Source: Alphaproteobacteria bacterium (lineage in GTDB: Bacteria > Pseudomonadota > Alphaproteobacteria > Rs-D84). From it: a stretch of 64,000 nt of DNA. The position numbers and the translations under genes are program-made. A model generated the notes under the pieces. It did no database searches. It was not told the origin of the DNA and was given only the letters and a program-made list of their open reading frames with translations. Positions within the stretch are counted from its first letter, which is position 1. Each line of letters begins with the position of its first letter. Shown piece by piece: positions 7 through 8,806 of this stretch. Location: positions 82,964 to 146,963 of the forward strand of contig SUUM01000002.1 of assembly GCA_015062525.1 (NCBI GenBank). The letters run 5' to 3'.

Positions 7-20
7 AAAGTGTATGACAT
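7..20. repeat. 14-bp direct repeat aaagtgtatgacat (left copy). Putative attL core of the 7-kb element; the right copy is at 7019-7032
   Basis: Exact 14-mer repeated at 7019-7032 (18/19 identity including flanks). It sits immediately upstream of the integrase gene. A gtaatac heptamer flanks both copies (24-30 and 7012-7018). Confidence 0.5.
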
Positions 21-1567
21 ATTGTAATACCGATAAATACATCCGGTTGCGAAACAATATTTTTTATTTTACAATGGAATTACCAAGACAAAACGGTAAA
101 AGACGGTTCTTTTGTAAATCGTTACATACCTACAATTATTACGAAGCAAGGGAAAAAGCAAAAATTATGGCGGAAAACGTTGAACATTTTGACACGATAC
201 AATTTATGAATGATTTCAATACGTTATGGAATCAGGTAATATTTGATTATAGTGGCACTGGTGGTAATTTTACCGGGTTTGCAGCCCGCAGGATATCGGA
301 TAAAACAAACCCTATGGTTTTAAAACAATTAAAAAACATGTCCGAAAAGTTAGATTTGATACAACAAAACCAACTTGACCCCGGGGACAAAATTATGTTG
401 GGACAATTAAAATCTGTTATTCCACAAATAAATGCTTTATTGGCCAAAGTGGATAATGTGGAACAATTATTGGCAAGTGCTCAAATTCAACAACCAAAAC
501 AAACCAAAAAATATAAAATTGGTGAAGTTTTGAAATCAATGTTAAAAAAGTCCAATAACCAAAAAGCAGAAACCGACAGAAAAAACAACAGTATTATAAA
601 AATGTTATCTGAAGTGGGTTTGAACCCAGATTGTGATTATGATGATTTTAATAATCCGGAAATAATCCAAAATATAGCAGAAAATATCAAAGGGTATCAA
701 ATTAAGGGTGATGCCAAACGAAAATACGTCAGATATATTCGTGATTTGATAAAACAAGCACATATTTTAGCCCCAGATTCATACCAAGAAAATTTTATAA
801 ATTTGTTGCCTGATTTACCAAAAACACCAAAACACCAACAAAAACCACATTTACCGTATTCCGAAAGTCAATTATTGGAAATGTTTGACCCGAAATACGA
901 CCACTTTAAAACTAACCCGGACGAATTTTGGACGGCTTTGATTGGTTTGTTTACCGGTGCCAGAATAAATGCAGCAACAACCTTGCAATATGGTGACATT
1001 ATTAACCAGGATGGGCTTGATTGTATTTATTTTAGACAAAATCACCCTGTAAAACACCTTAAAACCGAAGCATCCGAACGTATTGTTCCGATACCATCGC
1101 AGTTGTTGAATATGGGTTTTGTTGATTGGGTTAAAGCCAGAAAAGAAAAATTAAATACCACAGATGATGACTTCATTTTTCCAAAATGTAAAACAAAAAC
1201 AGGCAATTTTGAAAATAAATATTGGTCACGTGGTTTGGCGGTATTTTTGAAAGAAATCGGGGTTAAATCAAAAAATGGTGACCAGTTAGATTTTCATTCG
1301 TTCCGCAAAAACGCGAGTTTAAGATTACAAAATGCAGGAATAATCCAATCTTTTATTAACGATATTATCGGTTGGGAAGGCAAAAACACGATGGAACAAT
1401 CGTATTCAAATCACACTTTACCCCAGATAAAAGAACAAATTGATAAGTTGAATTATGACTTTTTACAACCCCATTTTGATAAATGGACGGAAATAATGAA
1501 AAAAGTAAAATGTAGTGAAAAAAGACGTTCGGAAACTGGGAAAAGTGGGAACAAAGGGAACAAATAA
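14..1567 (+). CDS. Tyrosine recombinase / phage-type integrase
   Basis: C-terminal catalytic-domain motifs are present: TGARINAA (box I Arg), HSFRKNASLRL (HxxR) and a downstream Tyr in EQSYSNH. The gene sits at the edge of an AT-rich island. The true start may be the internal Met (MELPRQ..., ~74). Confidence 0.75.
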   Translation: MTYCNTDKYIRLRNNIFYFTMELPRQNGKRRFFCKSLHTYNYYEAREKAKIMAENVEHFDTIQFMNDFNTLWNQVIFDYSGTGGNFTGFAARRISDKTNPMVLKQLKNMSEKLDLIQQNQLDPGDKIMLGQLKSVIPQINALLAKVDNVEQLLASAQIQQPKQTKKYKIGEVLKSMLKKSNNQKAETDRKNNSIIKMLSEVGLNPDCDYDDFNNPEIIQNIAENIKGYQIKGDAKRKYVRYIRDLIKQAHILAPDSYQENFINLLPDLPKTPKHQQKPHLPYSESQLLEMFDPKYDHFKTNPDEFWTALIGLFTGARINAATTLQYGDIINQDGLDCIYFRQNHPVKHLKTEASERIVPIPSQLLNMGFVDWVKARKEKLNTTDDDFIFPKCKTKTGNFENKYWSRGLAVFLKEIGVKSKNGDQLDFHSFRKNASLRLQNAGIIQSFINDIIGWEGKNTMEQSYSNHTLPQIKEQIDKLNYDFLQPHFDKWTEIMKKVKCSEKRRSETGKSGNKGNK

Positions 1568-1735: not shown

Positions 1736-2377
1736 TTACTTTTTTACATGTTTTTGAAATGATATTTGATGCAGATCAGAAATCAAATTTTTACCTTTAT
1801 AATTTTTTTCAAATTTTTTAAAGATATCAATCTGTTTGATAAAATCATCAGTATCAACATACCAGGTGTAATTATATTTATCAAATGCGTCAAACACAAT
1901 AATATCAATTTCTTTTCTGTGCTTTTTTATCCATTTATATACAGTTTCAAAATCAATATATAAAAACGTATCATTTTTTGCTATTTCGTGTATTTCACGA
2001 ATGGATAAAAATACACTAAAAAACTTGTTATTATCACTCGTTGTAATTTTTGGCACAACATTCACATTTTTCATATACAAATAATCAGTATTTTTGCAAT
2101 CTGGTAATTTTATAATACTTTTGTCGTTTGTTCCAGGGGGATAAATAGCACCAACTGGGATTAACATTTCAGAGTGCACCAACAGGGATAAAAAATACAT
2201 TAAACTTTCTGAATCCTTAAATGTTATAAATTCGGATAATGCACTAGATAACGTTCCACACAAATAATCTGTATGTTTTTCTTTGTGAATAATACAGTAA
2301 TCAAACTCATATTCAAAATCTTTGAAATGATTTTCATCCATTACATACATTGGTAAAGATTTTTTTAAATTTGACAT
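1736..2377 (-). CDS. Hypothetical protein; third gene of the nuclease operon
   Basis: 213-aa ORF lying 3 nt downstream of the GIY-YIG gene on the same strand. No recognisable motif. Confidence 0.5.
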   Translation of the reverse strand: MSNLKKSLPMYVMDENHFKDFEYEFDYCIIHKEKHTDYLCGTLSSALSEFITFKDSESLMYFLSLLVHSEMLIPVGAIYPPGTNDKSIIKLPDCKNTDYLYMKNVNVVPKITTSDNNKFFSVFLSIREIHEIAKNDTFLYIDFETVYKWIKKHRKEIDIIVFDAFDKYNYTWYVDTDDFIKQIDIFKKFEKNYKGKNLISDLHQISFQKHVKK

Positions 2378-2380
2378 ACT

Positions 2381-3370
2381 CTAATTATCATTATAACCAA
2401 AATCCCGAGTTTTTAAAACTTCTTTCCAATAATTTTCACGTTCTAGTGCTTTGGTTTTCCCTAACTCTGTCTTTGGAAATATTTCCATTATACTATATTG
2501 AAAGTTATCCTTAATATATTTAATCCCTTTTGTTTTAACTAATTCTTTTAATTTTTTATTTGGATAATCCTTGTTTGTGTCATCATAACCTTTATTCAGA
2601 TAAACAGACCAACGGCCATAAATTCCATTGTTTCCTGTTGCAGAACCTATGTATTGTTTCCCTGTATTCATATCTGTTAACACATATACACCAAACACAT
2701 TACTTAAATTCTCTTTCCAATCTCTGCTGTCTATCACTCGTTTCAAAGAATTATAATCTTTTCTAACGTTTTCATATCCAGTAAACTTTTCTTCCATATT
2801 TAAATATGGTTCTGGTAAAATTTCTGACACAACAACACTATTTATAACATCATCTGATGTATAATAAAATTGTTGGGGCTTGTTTGTGAAATTAACCACT
2901 AAACGACCATTAAACGATTCAAACTCTTTTAATTTTTTTGCGTTAGCATACCTGAAGTGTTCGTGTTTTACTTCATTAAAACCGTCTGCGTTTAAATCAA
3001 TAATTTGGTAAGCACCTATAAATAACCATTTATGAGTATCTATTTCTATAAATTCAAAAACAACATCTTCTAAACTTAACCGTTTCTTTTTTCCTGAACC
3101 CATAGACAATATAGCTTGGTCAAGAAACTTATCCTTATTCAGATACATTGTTTTAAAATCACGTATCTTTCTTACTTTCTTGCCATGTTCCTGAATTTCA
3201 TCTTGCCAAGATATATTAAACCTTAATTTACGTCGTTTGGTTGGGTAATTATTTTCAAAATTATTCTTATTAAGTCCGAATAAGATGTCAACTAGATGTA
3301 ATTCAGTATTCATATTATACCCTTTAATCGTTTGATTCTGGATATGGATAAGTTTCATCATAAATATCAC
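2381..3370 (-). CDS. GIY-YIG nuclease domain protein with an unknown ~200-aa N-terminal domain
   Basis: The C-terminus reads FGVYVLTDMNTGKQYIGSATGNNGIYGRWSVY...ENYWKEVLKTR, a canonical GIY...YIG...R...E...N arrangement. It overlaps the upstream gene by ~47 nt. Confidence 0.65.
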   Translation of the reverse strand: MIFMMKLIHIQNQTIKGYNMNTELHLVDILFGLNKNNFENNYPTKRRKLRFNISWQDEIQEHGKKVRKIRDFKTMYLNKDKFLDQAILSMGSGKKKRLSLEDVVFEFIEIDTHKWLFIGAYQIIDLNADGFNEVKHEHFRYANAKKLKEFESFNGRLVVNFTNKPQQFYYTSDDVINSVVVSEILPEPYLNMEEKFTGYENVRKDYNSLKRVIDSRDWKENLSNVFGVYVLTDMNTGKQYIGSATGNNGIYGRWSVYLNKGYDDTNKDYPNKKLKELVKTKGIKYIKDNFQYSIMEIFPKTELGKTKALERENYWKEVLKTRDFGYNDN

Positions 3371-3953
3371 GTAAATTTTTATTATTATAAGTCCAGTATT
3401 GACCTGGTTGAACGTAATACGGTAAATCCAATAATTCCTTTGTTAAAGCACTTAATGCGTATTCTTTATCATTATATAATACCTTTTTAGGACCAATAAC
3501 ACTAATTTTAATATCTGGGTCTTTTACATAAAACAATTCTGAACCGACAGGAATTCCCATTTCTTCAAAATTAAATTGCGGTCTGTGGAATTGTTTAGCA
3601 GCAGACTTTTCTGCATCAGATATATTACGAAACAAAGCATCCTGAACAGTATTTGTTATTTCACTTGTTGAAAATTCCTTTAATAAAGGGATAACTTGGT
3701 CGGGTGCAACATTGAAAAATTCACGTTTCGGGTTAACACGTTTATCCCGAAAAGCATTATGAATAATTTGTTCAATTGTTGTGCAATCTTTAACTTCACC
3801 AGCCCATAAACATTGAAAAGGGAACGGAACACCAGTTGAATATAATTCGGACATTCTGGCATTCAAATCTTTACGTTGTGTTTTTCCAATTTTTATTAAA
3901 TTCGGCATACCTTCATTAGCCAACACATAAACAATATTATATTTATCAGTCAT
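3324..3953 (-). CDS. T5orf172 / MUG113-type (GIY-YIG-like) domain protein with a C-terminal extension
   Basis: The N-terminus YNIVYVLANEGMPNLIKIGKT...ELYSTGVPFPF...EVKD...EQIIHNAF...REFF matches the conserved T5orf172 pattern (VYVL..KIG.T, STGVP.PF). Confidence 0.65.
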   Translation of the reverse strand: MTDKYNIVYVLANEGMPNLIKIGKTQRKDLNARMSELYSTGVPFPFQCLWAGEVKDCTTIEQIIHNAFRDKRVNPKREFFNVAPDQVIPLLKEFSTSEITNTVQDALFRNISDAEKSAAKQFHRPQFNFEEMGIPVGSELFYVKDPDIKISVIGPKKVLYNDKEYALSALTKELLDLPYYVQPGQYWTYNNKNLRDIYDETYPYPESND

Positions 3954-4102: not shown

Positions 4103-4675
4103 ATGAAAAAAATTGTATTTATGGTCTTTTTGGTCTTTAATACCCTGTGTGCAAATGCTCAGGACGGATTTACTTTTTCACAAAATATCAGTAAATTGAA
4201 AAATTTAGATTTACATAATAACGACGCAGAGTTTACCCAAGAACAAAAGGAACAAAAACAAGTCAAAGTTTCTTTTTATAATACACTGTATAAAACCTGT
4301 ATTGATAATGGCAAACAAAGAATTAAACAAAAACAACCACTTGATAACGAAACACTTTATATGCTTGAAAAAGTGTGTGATTGTTATACTTTGACTATGA
4401 TGGACAAAGTTGATTGGAAAAAATTAAAAAATATGACAGGAAACGAAATTGATTCTTACCTGGCGACTTTCCATACAGAAGTAAAAGATGAATGTAGTGA
4501 AAGATTTAAAGATAGACCTGTTTATCAAGATAATAACACAAAAAATACAACACCTGAAAATATAAAAAACAAAGTCGATAACATAACGGGAAAAATTTTA
4601 GCGGGAATAATTTTTTCTTTAATTTTTACCCTGATAGCATGGTTGATAAGTAAAGCCATTAAAACAGATAAATAA
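4103..4675 (+). CDS. Secreted, C-terminally membrane-anchored hypothetical protein
   Basis: Signal peptide MKKIVFMVFLVFNTLCANAQ, scattered Cys residues, and a C-terminal TM helix ILAGIIFSLIFTLIAWLI. Confidence 0.5.
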   Translation: MKKIVFMVFLVFNTLCANAQDGFTFSQNISKLKNLDLHNNDAEFTQEQKEQKQVKVSFYNTLYKTCIDNGKQRIKQKQPLDNETLYMLEKVCDCYTLTMMDKVDWKKLKNMTGNEIDSYLATFHTEVKDECSERFKDRPVYQDNNTKNTTPENIKNKVDNITGKILAGIIFSLIFTLIAWLISKAIKTDK

Positions 4676-5057: not shown

Positions 5058-5579
5058 TTATTGTTTTGGTCTTTTATACGGAATATTAAATAATTGTTCA
5101 GATGTGAATAACCTAATTGAGTCAAAATGTTGATGGTTATCAGTTAAAATTTCTTTGCTGTTATACCCAGCAAGATTTTCAGGTGTTCGGTTTATGTTTT
5201 GCACGTCTATTGCCCTGGACGGCATTTTGTGTAAGTGCATAATAATTTCACAAGCACGTTGTATTTGTTCCAATGTATGATTGGGTGCTGTTAAATGAAT
5301 ATGAAAATGACACACGTGTTTTTTACCCAGTTCGATTACACCACGAAAACGTAAGTGGTGTCTGTTCCAATGTAGCCCACCTAATATACGTTCAAGGTCC
5401 AATAAAATGGGGTGCAATATATCAAGTGCTTTATACATATCAGATGTTTCAGAAAAAAGTGGTAAACGAATACACAAATAATGTGTGGGGTTATTTTCGT
5501 TTAAGAAGTCAATAAGTTGTGGAAGTATTTTAAGATATTGTTGTTTTGTATAAAAAGTGTCTGTTATGAATTTTTTCAT
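5058..5579 (-). CDS. Hypothetical protein with HUH-endonuclease-like motifs; possible rolling-circle Rep
   Basis: Three motifs in the canonical Rep order and spacing: YLCIRLP (motif 1-like), CHFHIHLT (HuHuuu), and AGYNSKE (YxxK). Confidence 0.4.
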   Translation of the reverse strand: MKKFITDTFYTKQQYLKILPQLIDFLNENNPTHYLCIRLPLFSETSDMYKALDILHPILLDLERILGGLHWNRHHLRFRGVIELGKKHVCHFHIHLTAPNHTLEQIQRACEIIMHLHKMPSRAIDVQNINRTPENLAGYNSKEILTDNHQHFDSIRLFTSEQLFNIPYKRPKQ

Positions 5580-6033: not shown

Positions 6034-6594
6034 TTAGACAAGATTGGTACGTAAACCATAATCCGTATTTAATCTTAGTTCTTTATAAAGGTCTATGCCA
6101 TCACGAATACTTTTCATTCGTTTGGGGTTTGTGTGGGTATATTTTGACCACAGATTCAATTCACATTGTTTGTGTGTGTCTATCAAAGCCACGTTTTCTT
6201 TGACCAAATGTATTTCAATTGTGGTCGTATCCAGCATAAAATCCAATATAACTATTTTACCAAAATCATGTGTTGGTAACTGTTCAGCACTATCAAATAC
6301 AACTGCAACGGATTGATGTAAACTGTTTATATAATTTATCATGTGATAGAATGTTTTATCATCATCCAATGGATTGCATTCTAAAAATGTTTTTATAATT
6401 ACCAGATCTTTATCAAAACAATATTTTGCAGTTCTAAATAATTGAGGTGTTAACGTATCGTTTTCATCCCCAGGGAAACAGGGATTTTGACTTGCAAATA
6501 TAATTGCATCAAAATAATTACTCATGTTTAATACCTTTGACTTAAATTCGGTCGTTTTGTTGTTTTCTGACCGAAAATGTTGATTGGAATCCAA
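6034..6594 (-). CDS. Hypothetical protein
   Basis: 186-aa ORF in the AT-rich island; no motif recognised. Confidence 0.4.
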   Translation of the reverse strand: MDSNQHFRSENNKTTEFKSKVLNMSNYFDAIIFASQNPCFPGDENDTLTPQLFRTAKYCFDKDLVIIKTFLECNPLDDDKTFYHMINYINSLHQSVAVVFDSAEQLPTHDFGKIVILDFMLDTTTIEIHLVKENVALIDTHKQCELNLWSKYTHTNPKRMKSIRDGIDLYKELRLNTDYGLRTNLV

Positions 6595-7018
6595 AGGACA
6601 TCAAAAAGGGACAAATGTTAAAAAACGACAAAAATAATCATACCGATATTTTTTTGATGACAAAGGTATTTGATTTGTTTTTGGATTTTATTTTGATTTG
6701 ACCCCACTTGGTGTCTTTTGGGGTTAATAAAAAATAGGTTCGGTTATGGGACAAAATTTATCACCCCATATATATTAGAACTATTTTTTTTACGTTTTTA
6801 ACGCTTGTTAGACTTTATAAATGTCATTTTTTTGCATTTTTTTTGATTTTTATGGTATTATGATACCAAAATCCCAAATTTTATGACTCCGTTGATAAAA
6901 CATCCTTGAAACAGTGGTCGATTGACCCAAAAAATATAAAAACTGGGTTCACGACCATAAAAACCCGTTTACATTATCAAAAAAATGGTATATAATCCGT
7001 ATCAAGAAAGTGTAATAC

Positions 7019-7032
7019 AAAGTGTATGACAT
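7019..7032. repeat. 14-bp direct repeat aaagtgtatgacat (right copy). Putative attR core
   Basis: Identical to 7-20. It is located where the AT-rich island ends and the core begins. Confidence 0.5.
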
Positions 7033-7097
7033 TTTGACGAATTTAGGTGCTGAAAATTAGCAAAAATGTTAGTTTTCTGGGGCATGACGGAAATATG

Positions 7098-7170
7098 GTA
7101 TGTTCCCCTTTGCTCGCACCAGATATTTTAAACCACCCGAAAGGGTGGTTTTTAAATATCTCGGGCAAAG
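7098..7170. repeat. ~70-nt imperfect palindrome (cccctttgc...agatattttaaaccacccgaaagggtggtttttaaatatct...gcaaagggg)
   Basis: Both arms were read directly from the sequence. Its centre is a stem-loop (accaccc gaaa gggtggt) followed by a T-run. Confidence 0.6.
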
Positions 7171-7227
7171 GGGCGAGTTGCGAGGCGAGGTTATGAAATA
7201 ACCGAAGTACTTTGCGAAGCCCAAAAT

Positions 7228-7262
7228 TTTAAAAACCACCCACTGGGGTGGTTTTTTATTGT
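7228..7262. terminator. Bidirectional intrinsic terminator (aaaaaccaccc actg gggtggtttttt)
   Basis: GC stem flanked by A-run and T-run, directly downstream of zapA (minus strand). Confidence 0.6.
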
Positions 7263-7534
7263 GTAATCTTGTGCTTAATCTCGCGTATTCGGGCCAGGAT
7301 TTCCTTCAAATCGGCATCTGTTGCGACGGCTTCTGGTTTGTTGTTCACCTCGTCAGCAAGGACAATACACAACGTCGCCAACAATGAACTTTCGGGCAGG
7401 GGCCCAATCTTGTCCAGAATCTGGCGCGCGCGCGCGTCAACCATTTTACCCAATTCAATCAGGCGCCCTTCCTGTCCATCTTCGCACCCCATTGGGTAAT
7501 TTTTATTTACAATCGGAATGGAAACAACACTCAT
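7256..7534 (-). CDS. zapA: Cell division protein ZapA
   Basis: N-terminal ...IVNKNYPMGCEDGQEGRLIELGKMVDARARQI resembles alphaproteobacterial ZapA (NYRMGCEDGQE). 92 aa. Confidence 0.7.
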   Translation of the reverse strand: MSVVSIPIVNKNYPMGCEDGQEGRLIELGKMVDARARQILDKIGPLPESSLLATLCIVLADEVNNKPEAVATDADLKEILARIREIKHKITQ

Positions 7535-7743
7535 TTTTTCAATTTCCTTAAAATAGATACAGATTTATCAATCATATCAACCGCGCGTGCATTTTTATCG
7601 CGCAGGCTGCGTACCTGTTCGGTTAATATTGCCACCTCTAAATCAGTTTGTTTGCCCGCGTGAATTGCGGTGCCACGTAATTTTGCGGCCGCTTCTTCCA
7701 GGTGGGCCAGTTCTTGAAAAATTTGCTGTTTTATATCTGCCAT
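7531..7743 (-). CDS. Small coiled-coil protein upstream of zapA (ZauP-like)
   Basis: 70-aa coiled-coil-type sequence, ATGA-overlap with zapA. This matches the zauP-zapA operon arrangement of alphaproteobacteria. Confidence 0.5.
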   Translation of the reverse strand: MADIKQQIFQELAHLEEAAAKLRGTAIHAGKQTDLEVAILTEQVRSLRDKNARAVDMIDKSVSILRKLKK

Positions 7744-7825
7744 ATCTTCAGTTTAAGACATTTTTTATATGCGTTCAACCCTAAAATGTGATATAATACG
7801 ACCATATACTGTGGGGGATGAATTT

Positions 7826-8806
7826 ATGAAGACCAAAATAATCTATATTTCCGGTAATGAAGTGTTTGAAATGTCTGAAATTCGCGCGGCATTTGATTCT
7901 GTGCGGGCCACGTTGGGGCTGGATAACGATACAATTTTATTTGGTGTTCCGGTTGACGCGGACAATGCATTATCAAATGTTGATATTACCACGCCAAGTA
8001 CGGAACCGATTGTTGAAACGGTGGTTATGCCGGCCGCAGAACCGGTTGTTGAATCAATTACAGAACCTGTTATTGAACCTGTTGTTGATGTTCAGTCATT
8101 GACCGCGGTGGACCCCGAACCGATTTCCCCAGATGAAGATATTGCCCCCCAGGAATCAGAACCTGTGATTCCAATTTTATCCATTTTATCTGCCCAGGAA
8201 ACGTCAATCGAACCCGAAATAAAAGCGGTCGCAGAACCTGTCGCAGAACCGATTGTGGAAACGGTTGCAGAACCCGTGGTGGAATCTGTGGAAGCGGCCG
8301 TGGCCCCCGCCACAGAAATTGTTGAAACCGCAATTATTTCGGATATTAACGTTAATGCGGAATTGTCTGCCCCGGTCAATGAAGATGATGCAACGGTTGA
8401 AACAATTACAATTGGCGACATGATTACGGATGATGCACCGGTTCCGCAAATGGAAAAAACGTTGGAAGAATTGTTGGAAACCATGGCACCCCTGCGCGAA
8501 GATGTTCAGCCCGAACCGGCACCTGAAATTTCCACCGATATTTTTGATGGCGACGATACGGATGCTACATTGGCGCAATTGGCAACCGAATTTGCCGACA
8601 CCCAGGATAAAATCCCCGCCACCCCACGTGCGACCGCGACGGGCAAAATTGGTAAATTAAAAAACATTTTACCATTCAAAAAGGCTAAACGCGATGACAA
8701 CGGTTTGATGGGCGATTTGTTTGGTTGGGCGGGTATTGCGGCCAACGATGATGATTTTACCATGCCTGGTTTTTTTACACCTGCGTCGAAAAAGCAGGGC
8801 GCATAA
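7826..8806 (+). CDS. Acidic, repeat-containing hypothetical protein
   Basis: Start chosen at MKTKIIYISG after a GGGGGA RBS. Body has AEPVVE/EPIVETV-type acidic repeats and a basic C-terminus. The ORF itself begins at 7769. Confidence 0.5.
   Translation: MKTKIIYISGNEVFEMSEIRAAFDSVRATLGLDNDTILFGVPVDADNALSNVDITTPSTEPIVETVVMPAAEPVVESITEPVIEPVVDVQSLTAVDPEPISPDEDIAPQESEPVIPILSILSAQETSIEPEIKAVAEPVAEPIVETVAEPVVESVEAAVAPATEIVETAIISDINVNAELSAPVNEDDATVETITIGDMITDDAPVPQMEKTLEELLETMAPLREDVQPEPAPEISTDIFDGDDTDATLAQLATEFADTQDKIPATPRATATGKIGKLKNILPFKKAKRDDNGLMGDLFGWAGIAANDDDFTMPGFFTPASKKQGA

Follow-up and report, generated by a model that had tools for sequence, protein, structure and literature searches.

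Two catalogued single-gene anti-phage families and an SseB-like gene in a small tRNA-Gly island of an uncultured alphaproteobacterium: a probable stack of separate genes

Introduction

Uzume is a single-gene GIY-YIG anti-phage system that was reportedly described by Millman and colleagues in 2022. Here we analyze a gene of this family, encoding UzuA, together with the gene on either side of it, in a 64,000-nucleotide (nt) stretch of contig SUUM01000002.1 (assembly GCA_015062525.1) from a poorly studied uncultured gut alphaproteobacterium. This whole stretch is called the window below. The three genes, numbered 1 to 3 in the direction of transcription, lie on the minus strand next to an integrase, and an earlier note on this DNA read them as a candidate for one new defense system resembling sensor/effector abortive-infection systems.

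In one preprint Uzume figures among the single-gene GIY-YIG systems (bioRxiv 10.1101/2024.10.26.620412); its mechanism is listed as unknown (PMC12926258). CMoRE, or PD-T4-3, is a proven single-protein GIY-YIG type IV enzyme that is specific for 5-hydroxymethylcytosine (5hmC) and glucosyl-5hmC (PMC12923530; PDB 9u75). Modification-dependent restriction enzymes are as a rule built by fusing a PUA-type reader to a nuclease (PMC6765204, PMC7897488), and EVE-GIY-YIG fusions are predicted type IV, modification-dependent enzymes (PMC7641849). In the phage satellite PLE and in phage ICP1, T5orf172 proteins (CapR, Odn) act as regulators or nucleases (PMC8096241, PMC8263062). For SseB domains, a role as Tic22-like peptide-binding chaperones has been predicted in conflict systems that are centered on ADP-ribosylglycohydrolases and carry nuclease effectors (PMC9503650).

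We propose, with a probability of roughly 0.6, that the three genes are a co-oriented stack of separate anti-phage genes in the cargo of a ~7.2-kb tRNA-Gly island rather than an obligate three-component machine. We favor this reading because genes 1 and 2 match single-gene families and because the genes are separate outside the island family.

Genes 1 and 2 Match Single-Gene Families

The genes are as follows.

3324-3953, minus strand: gene 1, a 209-amino-acid (aa) T5orf172 protein (GIY-YIG superfamily) with a C-terminal extension (PADLOC PDC-S57, Pfam)
2381-3313, minus strand: gene 2, a 310-aa protein of the UzuA (Uzume) family (PADLOC UzuA, alignment of 33 homologs)
1736-2377, minus strand: gene 3, a 213-aa divergent SseB-domain protein of a very small family (family-level Pfam signal)

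The listing of open reading frames (ORFs) confirms the three co-oriented minus-strand ORFs of the earlier note, with their 3-nt gap between genes 2 and 3. Gene 1 contains all of the T5orf172 motifs ascribed to it (VYVL..KIGKT, STGVPFPF, and REFF) and matches Pfam T5orf172 (1.7e-17) and MUG113 (5.4e-16). It is a full-length member of PDC-S57, T5orf172 domain and C-terminal extension included, given its match to PADLOC model PDLC05041 (6.3e-71; aa 1-203 against profile positions 1-208 of 212). More than 1300 homologs of ~205-209 aa make this a large family of very uniform length. Homologs of 68-84% identity are free-standing in variable regions with neither UzuA nor gene 3 near them, and those at loci L106-L113 have no conserved neighbor and lie near type I restriction-modification, KAP NTPase, and FtsK-like genes. 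Gene 1 would bind or cut DNA through its T5orf172 domain as a stand-alone protein of the PDC-S57 type.

Gene 2 matches the PADLOC UzuA model PDLC03973 (1.6e-47), with aa 96-329 of its longest ORF aligned to profile positions 53-278 of 278. A full-length MAFFT alignment with 33 homologs from many phyla (32-76% identity, 21 invariant columns) places it in the UzuA family over its whole length. It consists of a conserved beta-rich N-terminal domain (~aa 1-175) and a C-terminal GIY-YIG nuclease domain (~aa 200-310), whose catalytic residues are intact and, across the family, invariant. Y210, R234, and E293 are among these catalytic residues, and W96 is an invariant position of the N-terminal domain. 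Gene 2 has, on this alignment, a complete GIY-YIG active site and is a predicted nuclease; the GIY-YIG motifs that had been noticed at its C-terminus are not spurious. The N-terminal domain of ~200 aa that had been described there as uncharacterized and perhaps a sensor does exist, but it is shared across the UzuA family, in which it is conserved. The profile searches thus uphold the earlier assignments to the T5orf172 and GIY-YIG families, but as the single-gene families PDC-S57 and Uzume. Genes 1 and 2 are, by their sequences, members of catalogued single-gene families with predicted defense activity. That the cargo is related to defense, as the earlier note supposed, is supported by the PADLOC matches of both nuclease genes and by the other defense-type genes that occupy the corresponding slot in sister islands.

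The spacing of these two genes differs from that first reported. The longest gene 2 ORF (2381-3370) begins at the most upstream GTG (3370), and the described 47-nt overlap with gene 1 is an artefact because this longest ORF was taken as gene 2. The true start is the ATG at 3313 (MNTELHLVD...), from which the 33 homologs align and which is preceded by a Shine-Dalgarno-like AAAGGG; furthermore, gene callers on several sister contigs give gene 2 as 310 aa. With this start the two genes are separated by a 10-nt gap. The arrangement suggests that all three genes are probably co-transcribed. A promoter scan returned 24 promoter-like sites against 17 expected, which is uninformative in such AT-rich DNA, and the same scan, with the same limit, found no terminators and hence none between the three genes.

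The Three Genes Are Separate outside One Island Family

The trio occurs in about ten other contigs, in which genes 1 and 2 are 99.5-99.7% identical to those of the window. These sister contigs are not independent evidence because they are near-identical copies of the same island. We surveyed 145 UzuA loci (the 80 best from species genomes, 63 viral, and 2 further). Gene 1 is present at none of the 145. The domain of gene 3 is present at 2 of the 80 genomic loci (L020 and L021, near-identical to each other) and at 0 of the 63 viral ones, and two UzuA homologs of 57-58% identity are without gene 3. At 45 of the 80 genomic loci no same-strand ORF of at least 60 aa starts within 150 nt downstream of UzuA, and the remaining loci are heterogeneous. 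The UzuA family as a whole has no conserved neighbor; in the window, UzuA has an SseB-like gene coupled downstream. Among the loci examined, then, the trio is confined to near-identical sister islands and is not co-conserved across unrelated genomes.

A separate observation concerns Streptococcus (L024-L033, about 6915-8120), where UzuA is followed after ~9-54 nt by a conserved protein of 325-404 aa with a coiled-coil region, a membrane segment, and a C-terminal repeat region. This protein may be a lineage-specific partner of UzuA or merely a fixed neighbor.

These distributions bear directly on the proposal of the earlier note that the trio forms a single new sensor/effector system, which we consider very improbable. 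Its shared orientation, its gaps of 10 and 3 nt with no terminator-like site between the genes, and its retention as a block in about 10 sister contigs are what such a system would lead one to expect. However, the contigs that retain it are near-identical copies of one island, the three genes never occur as a trio elsewhere, each nuclease gene matches a separate single-gene family model, and the dS values given below point to separate histories. The note had suggested asking whether the trio moves as a unit in other genomes, and at the loci examined outside the island family it does not; a lack of co-conservation, which the note itself had named as evidence against its reading, is what these loci show.

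Mosaic History of the Cargo

We compared the window with sister island L015. Gene 1 has a synonymous divergence (dS) of 0.18, and gene 2 one of 0.023. For gene 3 it is 0.085 in the first 90 codons and 0.56 in the remainder, and a recombination breakpoint lies within this gene, at about position 2100. A breakpoint exactly at the boundary of genes 2 and 3, which would make gene 3 a separate insert, was considered and rejected given that the breakpoint is inside gene 3. The integrases of the two islands are just 60% identical. Ratios of nonsynonymous to synonymous divergence (dN/dS) of 0.011 for gene 1, 0.058 for gene 2, and 0.19 for gene 3 are indicative of purifying selection on all three. Because their dS values differ, the three genes have, by this measure, separate histories even inside the island family.

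Comparison with related islands also identifies a slot between the integrase and the trio.

1568-1735, no strand: empty cargo slot from the integrase to gene 3 (comparison with L100 and L011-L018)

In the metagenomic contig L100 this slot (6794-8245) holds a 483-aa PDC-M36A-like gene (8.9e-50). In L011-L018 (8652-10483 in L011) it holds a gene for a 432-aa ABC-ATPase similar to PD-T4-4_A/HEC-02A and a 177-aa gene. The integrase-adjacent slot looks like a hotspot at which defense cargo is exchanged, unlike a fixed operon. If the genes are indeed a stack, recombination that shuffles cargo within the island family would have brought the three of them together.

Gene 3 Is an SseB-Like Protein with Other Partners Elsewhere

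An exhaustive profile search of 1.84 billion proteins returned for gene 3 only its own small family of 17 representatives. PADLOC, PHROG, phage, and IMG/VR searches gave no match, and a sequence search of the PDB gave nothing meaningful. The earlier note saw no recognizable motif in this protein; we find a divergent SseB N-terminal domain (PF07179), which is the top and sole consistent Pfam match across the family and falls in the same region each time. Gene 3 of the window scores 13.9 bits (E=0.064), under the gathering cutoff of 21 bits; three relatives exceed that cutoff (P0282, 34.4 bits; P0277, 24.3 bits; P0032, 23.7 bits), and a 386-aa protein at L020 scores 20.7 bits. SseB membership, judged by these scores, holds at the level of the gene-3 family and not for the window sequence alone. 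The family additionally has its own conserved N-terminal peptide and a basic C-terminal tail. In gene 3 the first 36 residues, which include the conserved acidic/aromatic peptide at residues 8-30, are predicted to be disordered yet are the most conserved part of the protein. By analogy with other SseB domains, gene 3 is most likely a peptide- or protein-binding adaptor or chaperone.

Relatives of gene 3 (53-70% identity, and one distant member) are mostly preceded by an unrelated protein of ~180 aa. The two genes overlap or are 1-3 nt apart (37 nt in the distant member, L116), and this coupling recurs in seven distinct contexts, the distant one included. A variable chromosomal site flanked by MarR-RND efflux genes and MerR-gyrA is a frequent location of the pair. 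Further upstream, some of these loci have the gene for a type IV Mrr enzyme or for a D..ELK-motif protein of 227 aa, and D..ELK proteins of ~220 aa recur in operons of gene-3 family members. In a Bathyarchaeia metagenome-assembled genome, one such protein immediately follows a UzuA homolog.

L001 7459-8639; L005 7451-8615; L009 1189-2372; L103 5457-6639; L116 51-1302: pair of ~180-aa protein and SseB-like protein
L020 8189-8872; L019 119-796; L102 738-1397; L080 6381-7025: ~220-aa protein with a D..ELK (restriction-endonuclease-like) motif and no database match

The ~180-aa protein has the motifs LLCNPGGD and EYYPYHTKRS, and neither it nor the 227-aa protein has a match in Pfam, PADLOC, PHROG, or PDB sequences. 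It also lacks any match to the N-terminal part of the 386-aa L020 fusion. Motifs like those of uracil-DNA glycosylases were noticed in it by eye only, as an impression. The notion that the ~180-aa protein corresponds to the N-terminal domain of gene 2, split in one case and fused in the other, was discarded, since BLASTP found nothing and hhalign gave a probability of 0.3%. From its conserved context, the pair is a candidate for an undescribed two-gene defense or regulatory module: it is tiny, conserved, situated beside restriction-type nucleases, and in none of the defense databases searched. What is new here is the gene-3 family, its ~180-aa partner, and the association of both with restriction-type nucleases, for which context alone is the functional evidence.

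Do Genes 2 and 3 Act Together?

Several findings weigh against a stack of separate genes. PDC-S57 is a computational candidate only, and we found no paper that mentions it. The ATG of gene 3 lies 3 nt from the stop of gene 2, and because this gap is so short and gene 3 has no Shine-Dalgarno sequence or other ribosome-binding site, its translation probably depends on gene 2. The conserved disordered N-terminal peptide of gene 3 suggests a binding partner. Gene 3 has been kept under purifying selection without the ~180-aa partner that is usual elsewhere. Moreover, judged from gene order, the adjacency of UzuA and the gene-3 domain is not unique to the island of the window, as it is seen again at L020/L021, in a prophage-like element.

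Several of these points fit an alternative that we regard as possible but unlikely, namely that genes 2 and 3 are a two-component variant of Uzume in which the SseB-like protein is a regulator, inhibitor, or sensor adaptor of UzuA, with gene 1 separate. Gene 3 might hold UzuA inactive, or it might link UzuA to a phage protein through its N-terminal peptide. The 3-nt gap without a Shine-Dalgarno sequence fits translational coupling, the selection on gene 3 operates in islands that lack the ~180-aa partner, and the element at L020/L021 is a different mobile element in which UzuA is 56% and the gene-3 domain 42% identical to those of the window. Other nucleases also precede gene-3 family genes in the same operon (Mrr at L001; the D..ELK protein at L102, L019, and L020), and SseB domains are predicted chaperones in nuclease-bearing conflict systems (PMC9503650).

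Against this alternative, the gene-3 domain is absent at 143 of the 145 UzuA loci, including close relatives of 51-58% identity, and in the catalogue Uzume is a system of one gene (bioRxiv 10.1101/2024.10.26.620412). Gene 3 has as its conserved partner the ~180-aa protein, for which no relationship to UzuA was found (no BLASTP match; hhalign below 1%), and the recombination breakpoint falls within gene 3 itself. At L020 a 386-aa protein, beginning 68 nt downstream of UzuA, has the gene-3 domain as its C-terminal half, and its gene overlaps the downstream 227-aa gene by 1 nt; the tight coupling is thus to that neighbor. In a neighbor-joining tree of UzuA, drawn without support values, genes with and without a gene-3 neighbor are interleaved in one clade, and this tree cannot separate one ancestral pairing followed by losses from two gains. 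We continue to prefer a stack of separate genes, in which gene 3 follows UzuA here in place of the coupled ~180-aa partner found elsewhere, still under purifying selection.

It is conceivable, though doubtful, that the SseB-like family is a portable accessory subunit of an undescribed modular defense family with interchangeable DNA-targeting enzymes. On this idea the subunit would always be coupled to an upstream gene, and the enzymes would be UzuA, the type IV Mrr enzyme, the D..ELK protein, and most often the ~180-aa protein. If it were true, genes 2 and 3 would be a two-component Uzume variant in which an SseB-like protein controls or targets a modification-reading GIY-YIG nuclease.

Predicted Activity of UzuA

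The AlphaFold2 (AF2) model of gene 2 has a predicted local distance difference test score (pLDDT) of 93.8 and shows a beta-rich, barrel-like N-terminal domain. Fold matches of this domain are weak, yet they are dominated by modified-base readers of the PUA superfamily (13 of the 60 top matches), among them the EVE proteins PH1033 and THYN1, several YTH domains, and ASCH. Structure prediction, which the earlier note had asked for, gave a barrel-like fold with PUA-like matches that the profiles do not echo, as Pfam EVE, ASCH, and YTH match none of the 33 family members. These weak fold matches would make the barrel-like domain a reader of DNA or modified bases of the PUA/EVE/YTH type. UzuA would then recognize some feature of phage DNA through the N-terminal domain and cut by means of the C-terminal GIY-YIG domain. 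Because no sequence profile supports the PUA assignment, we give about even odds to the proposal that UzuA reads with a PUA-like domain and cuts with the other. The modeled resemblance to PUA-like readers hints at type IV restriction, and, as Uzume still has no listed mechanism, it offers a testable idea: type IV restriction of modified phage DNA.

The GIY-YIG domain of gene 2 is nearest to that of I-TevI in both fold and sequence, and the group I intron endonuclease model TIGR01453 matches it weakly. Such likenesses raise a further alternative, which we hold to be extremely improbable: that these are selfish genes of the homing-endonuclease type or genes for maintenance of the element, for example a T5orf172 DNA-binding regulator like those of PLE, with gene 3 as unrelated cargo. 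The T5orf172 regulators or nucleases of PLE and ICP1 (PMC8096241, PMC8263062) offer a precedent, and relatives of UzuA are also present on viral contigs, with a match to a PHROG family. However, TIGR01453 scores 30.3 bits where its cutoff is 56, the searches gave no DNA-binding module of the NUMOD or IENR type, and the GIY-YIG domain stands at the C-terminus, after a domain specific to the family, so that gene 2 does not belong with the I-TevI-type homing endonucleases. Furthermore, the genes stand free in the cargo of islands or prophages and not in introns, inteins, or conserved phage genes. Among cultured phages, gene 1 has no full-length homolog, gene 2 is found in 3 records, and gene 3 in 0.

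The Island and Its Ends

The location that the earlier note gave for the trio, beside the integrase of a small mobile island, is supported by the integrase itself, by base composition, and by a repeat of a tRNA gene. The remaining features are these.

14-1567, plus strand: tyrosine integrase of the island (Phage_integrase Pfam 2.9e-11; phrog_1, integrase, 3.7e-21)
4103-4675, plus strand: 190-aa protein with a hydrophobic N-terminus and C-terminus (ORF listing)
5058-5579, minus strand: 173-aa protein (Pfam REP_ORF2-G2P 3e-4, under its cutoff)
6034-6594, minus strand: 186-aa protein, function unassigned (ORF listing)
7105-7121, no strand: probable right attachment site (attR), an exact 17-bp copy, CCCCTTTGCTCGCACCA, of the 3' end of tRNA-Gly(GCC)
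7769-8806, plus strand: 345-aa, very acidic protein with repeated EPV/AEP-type segments, just outside the island

The integrase and gene 3 are convergent, tail to tail, and 168 nt apart. The G+C content is ~30% over positions 1 to ~7000 and ~45% past ~7000, the step at 7000 being from ~0.30 to ~0.46. The near-identical contig L100 runs past the left edge of the window and has a tRNA-Gly(GCC) gene just past the integrase, and comparison of its tRNA region with the window recovers the repeat at 7105-7121 (E=2.7e-5). Given the tRNA-Gly gene beyond the integrase in L100 and the 17-bp copy in the window, we place the trio in an integrative island of ~7.2 kb at tRNA-Gly, of which this repeat is the probable far end. 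The repeat is single at the island end of the window. L100 has two copies of it (1170-1185 and 1282-1300), and this doubling suggests the remnant of an earlier or tandem integration.

The 190-aa gene is 99.5% identical to its copies in sister islands. Those islands encode a 647-aa DUF927 protein further along (2399-4342 in L011), and the island of the window has the 173-aa protein with weak similarity to rolling-circle Rep ORF2/G2P instead. On these annotations the replication modules differ between the window and its sister islands although the defense cargo is nearly identical. As found, the locus represents routine stacking of defense genes in a small integrative island, and its use is mainly for annotation.

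Comparison with Known Systems

Gene 1 resembles the T5orf172 proteins of PLE and ICP1 in having this domain and in being carried by a small integrative element, and its partial PADLOC match to PD-Lambda-1 (3.7e-14) covers the C-terminal T5orf172 part of that protein. The PLE/ICP1 proteins and PD-Lambda-1 have another architecture and length, however, and just the ~100-aa domain is in common. As in the SseB (PF07179) conflict systems, gene-3 family genes occur in operons with nucleases, but the island of the window has no ADP-ribosylglycohydrolase gene. A UzuA homolog of 57% identity at L115 (5001-6715) is followed after 11 nt by an ADP-ribosylglycohydrolase gene, a link that may be coincidence.

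With CMoRE/PD-T4-3, gene 2 shares neither family nor layout: PD-T4-3 has no PADLOC match to gene 2, the domain order is reversed, with the putative sensor of UzuA at the N-terminus where CMoRE has an N-terminal GIYxY-YIG domain and a C-terminal modified-cytosine sensor, and as far as tested the two sensing domains show no relationship; for UzuA, dependence on modification is our inference. Likeness to the restriction enzymes that join EVE, YTH, or ASCH domains to nucleases is tentative, as is the fold assignment on which it depends, with no Pfam EVE, ASCH, or YTH match in the 33 members. PDC-S57, a single-gene "phage defence candidate" of PADLOC, is matched end to end by gene 1, and its homologs are free-standing proteins of ~207 aa; the location directly upstream of UzuA is specific to the island family of the window. 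Lastly, in the case of Uzume, the first ~50 positions of the PADLOC UzuA profile are unaligned to gene 2, and an SseB-like gene that is absent from 143 of 145 other UzuA loci here starts 3 nt after UzuA. In its length, its two-domain layout, and its conserved catalytic residues, gene 2 is the same as the 33 homologs with which it aligns.

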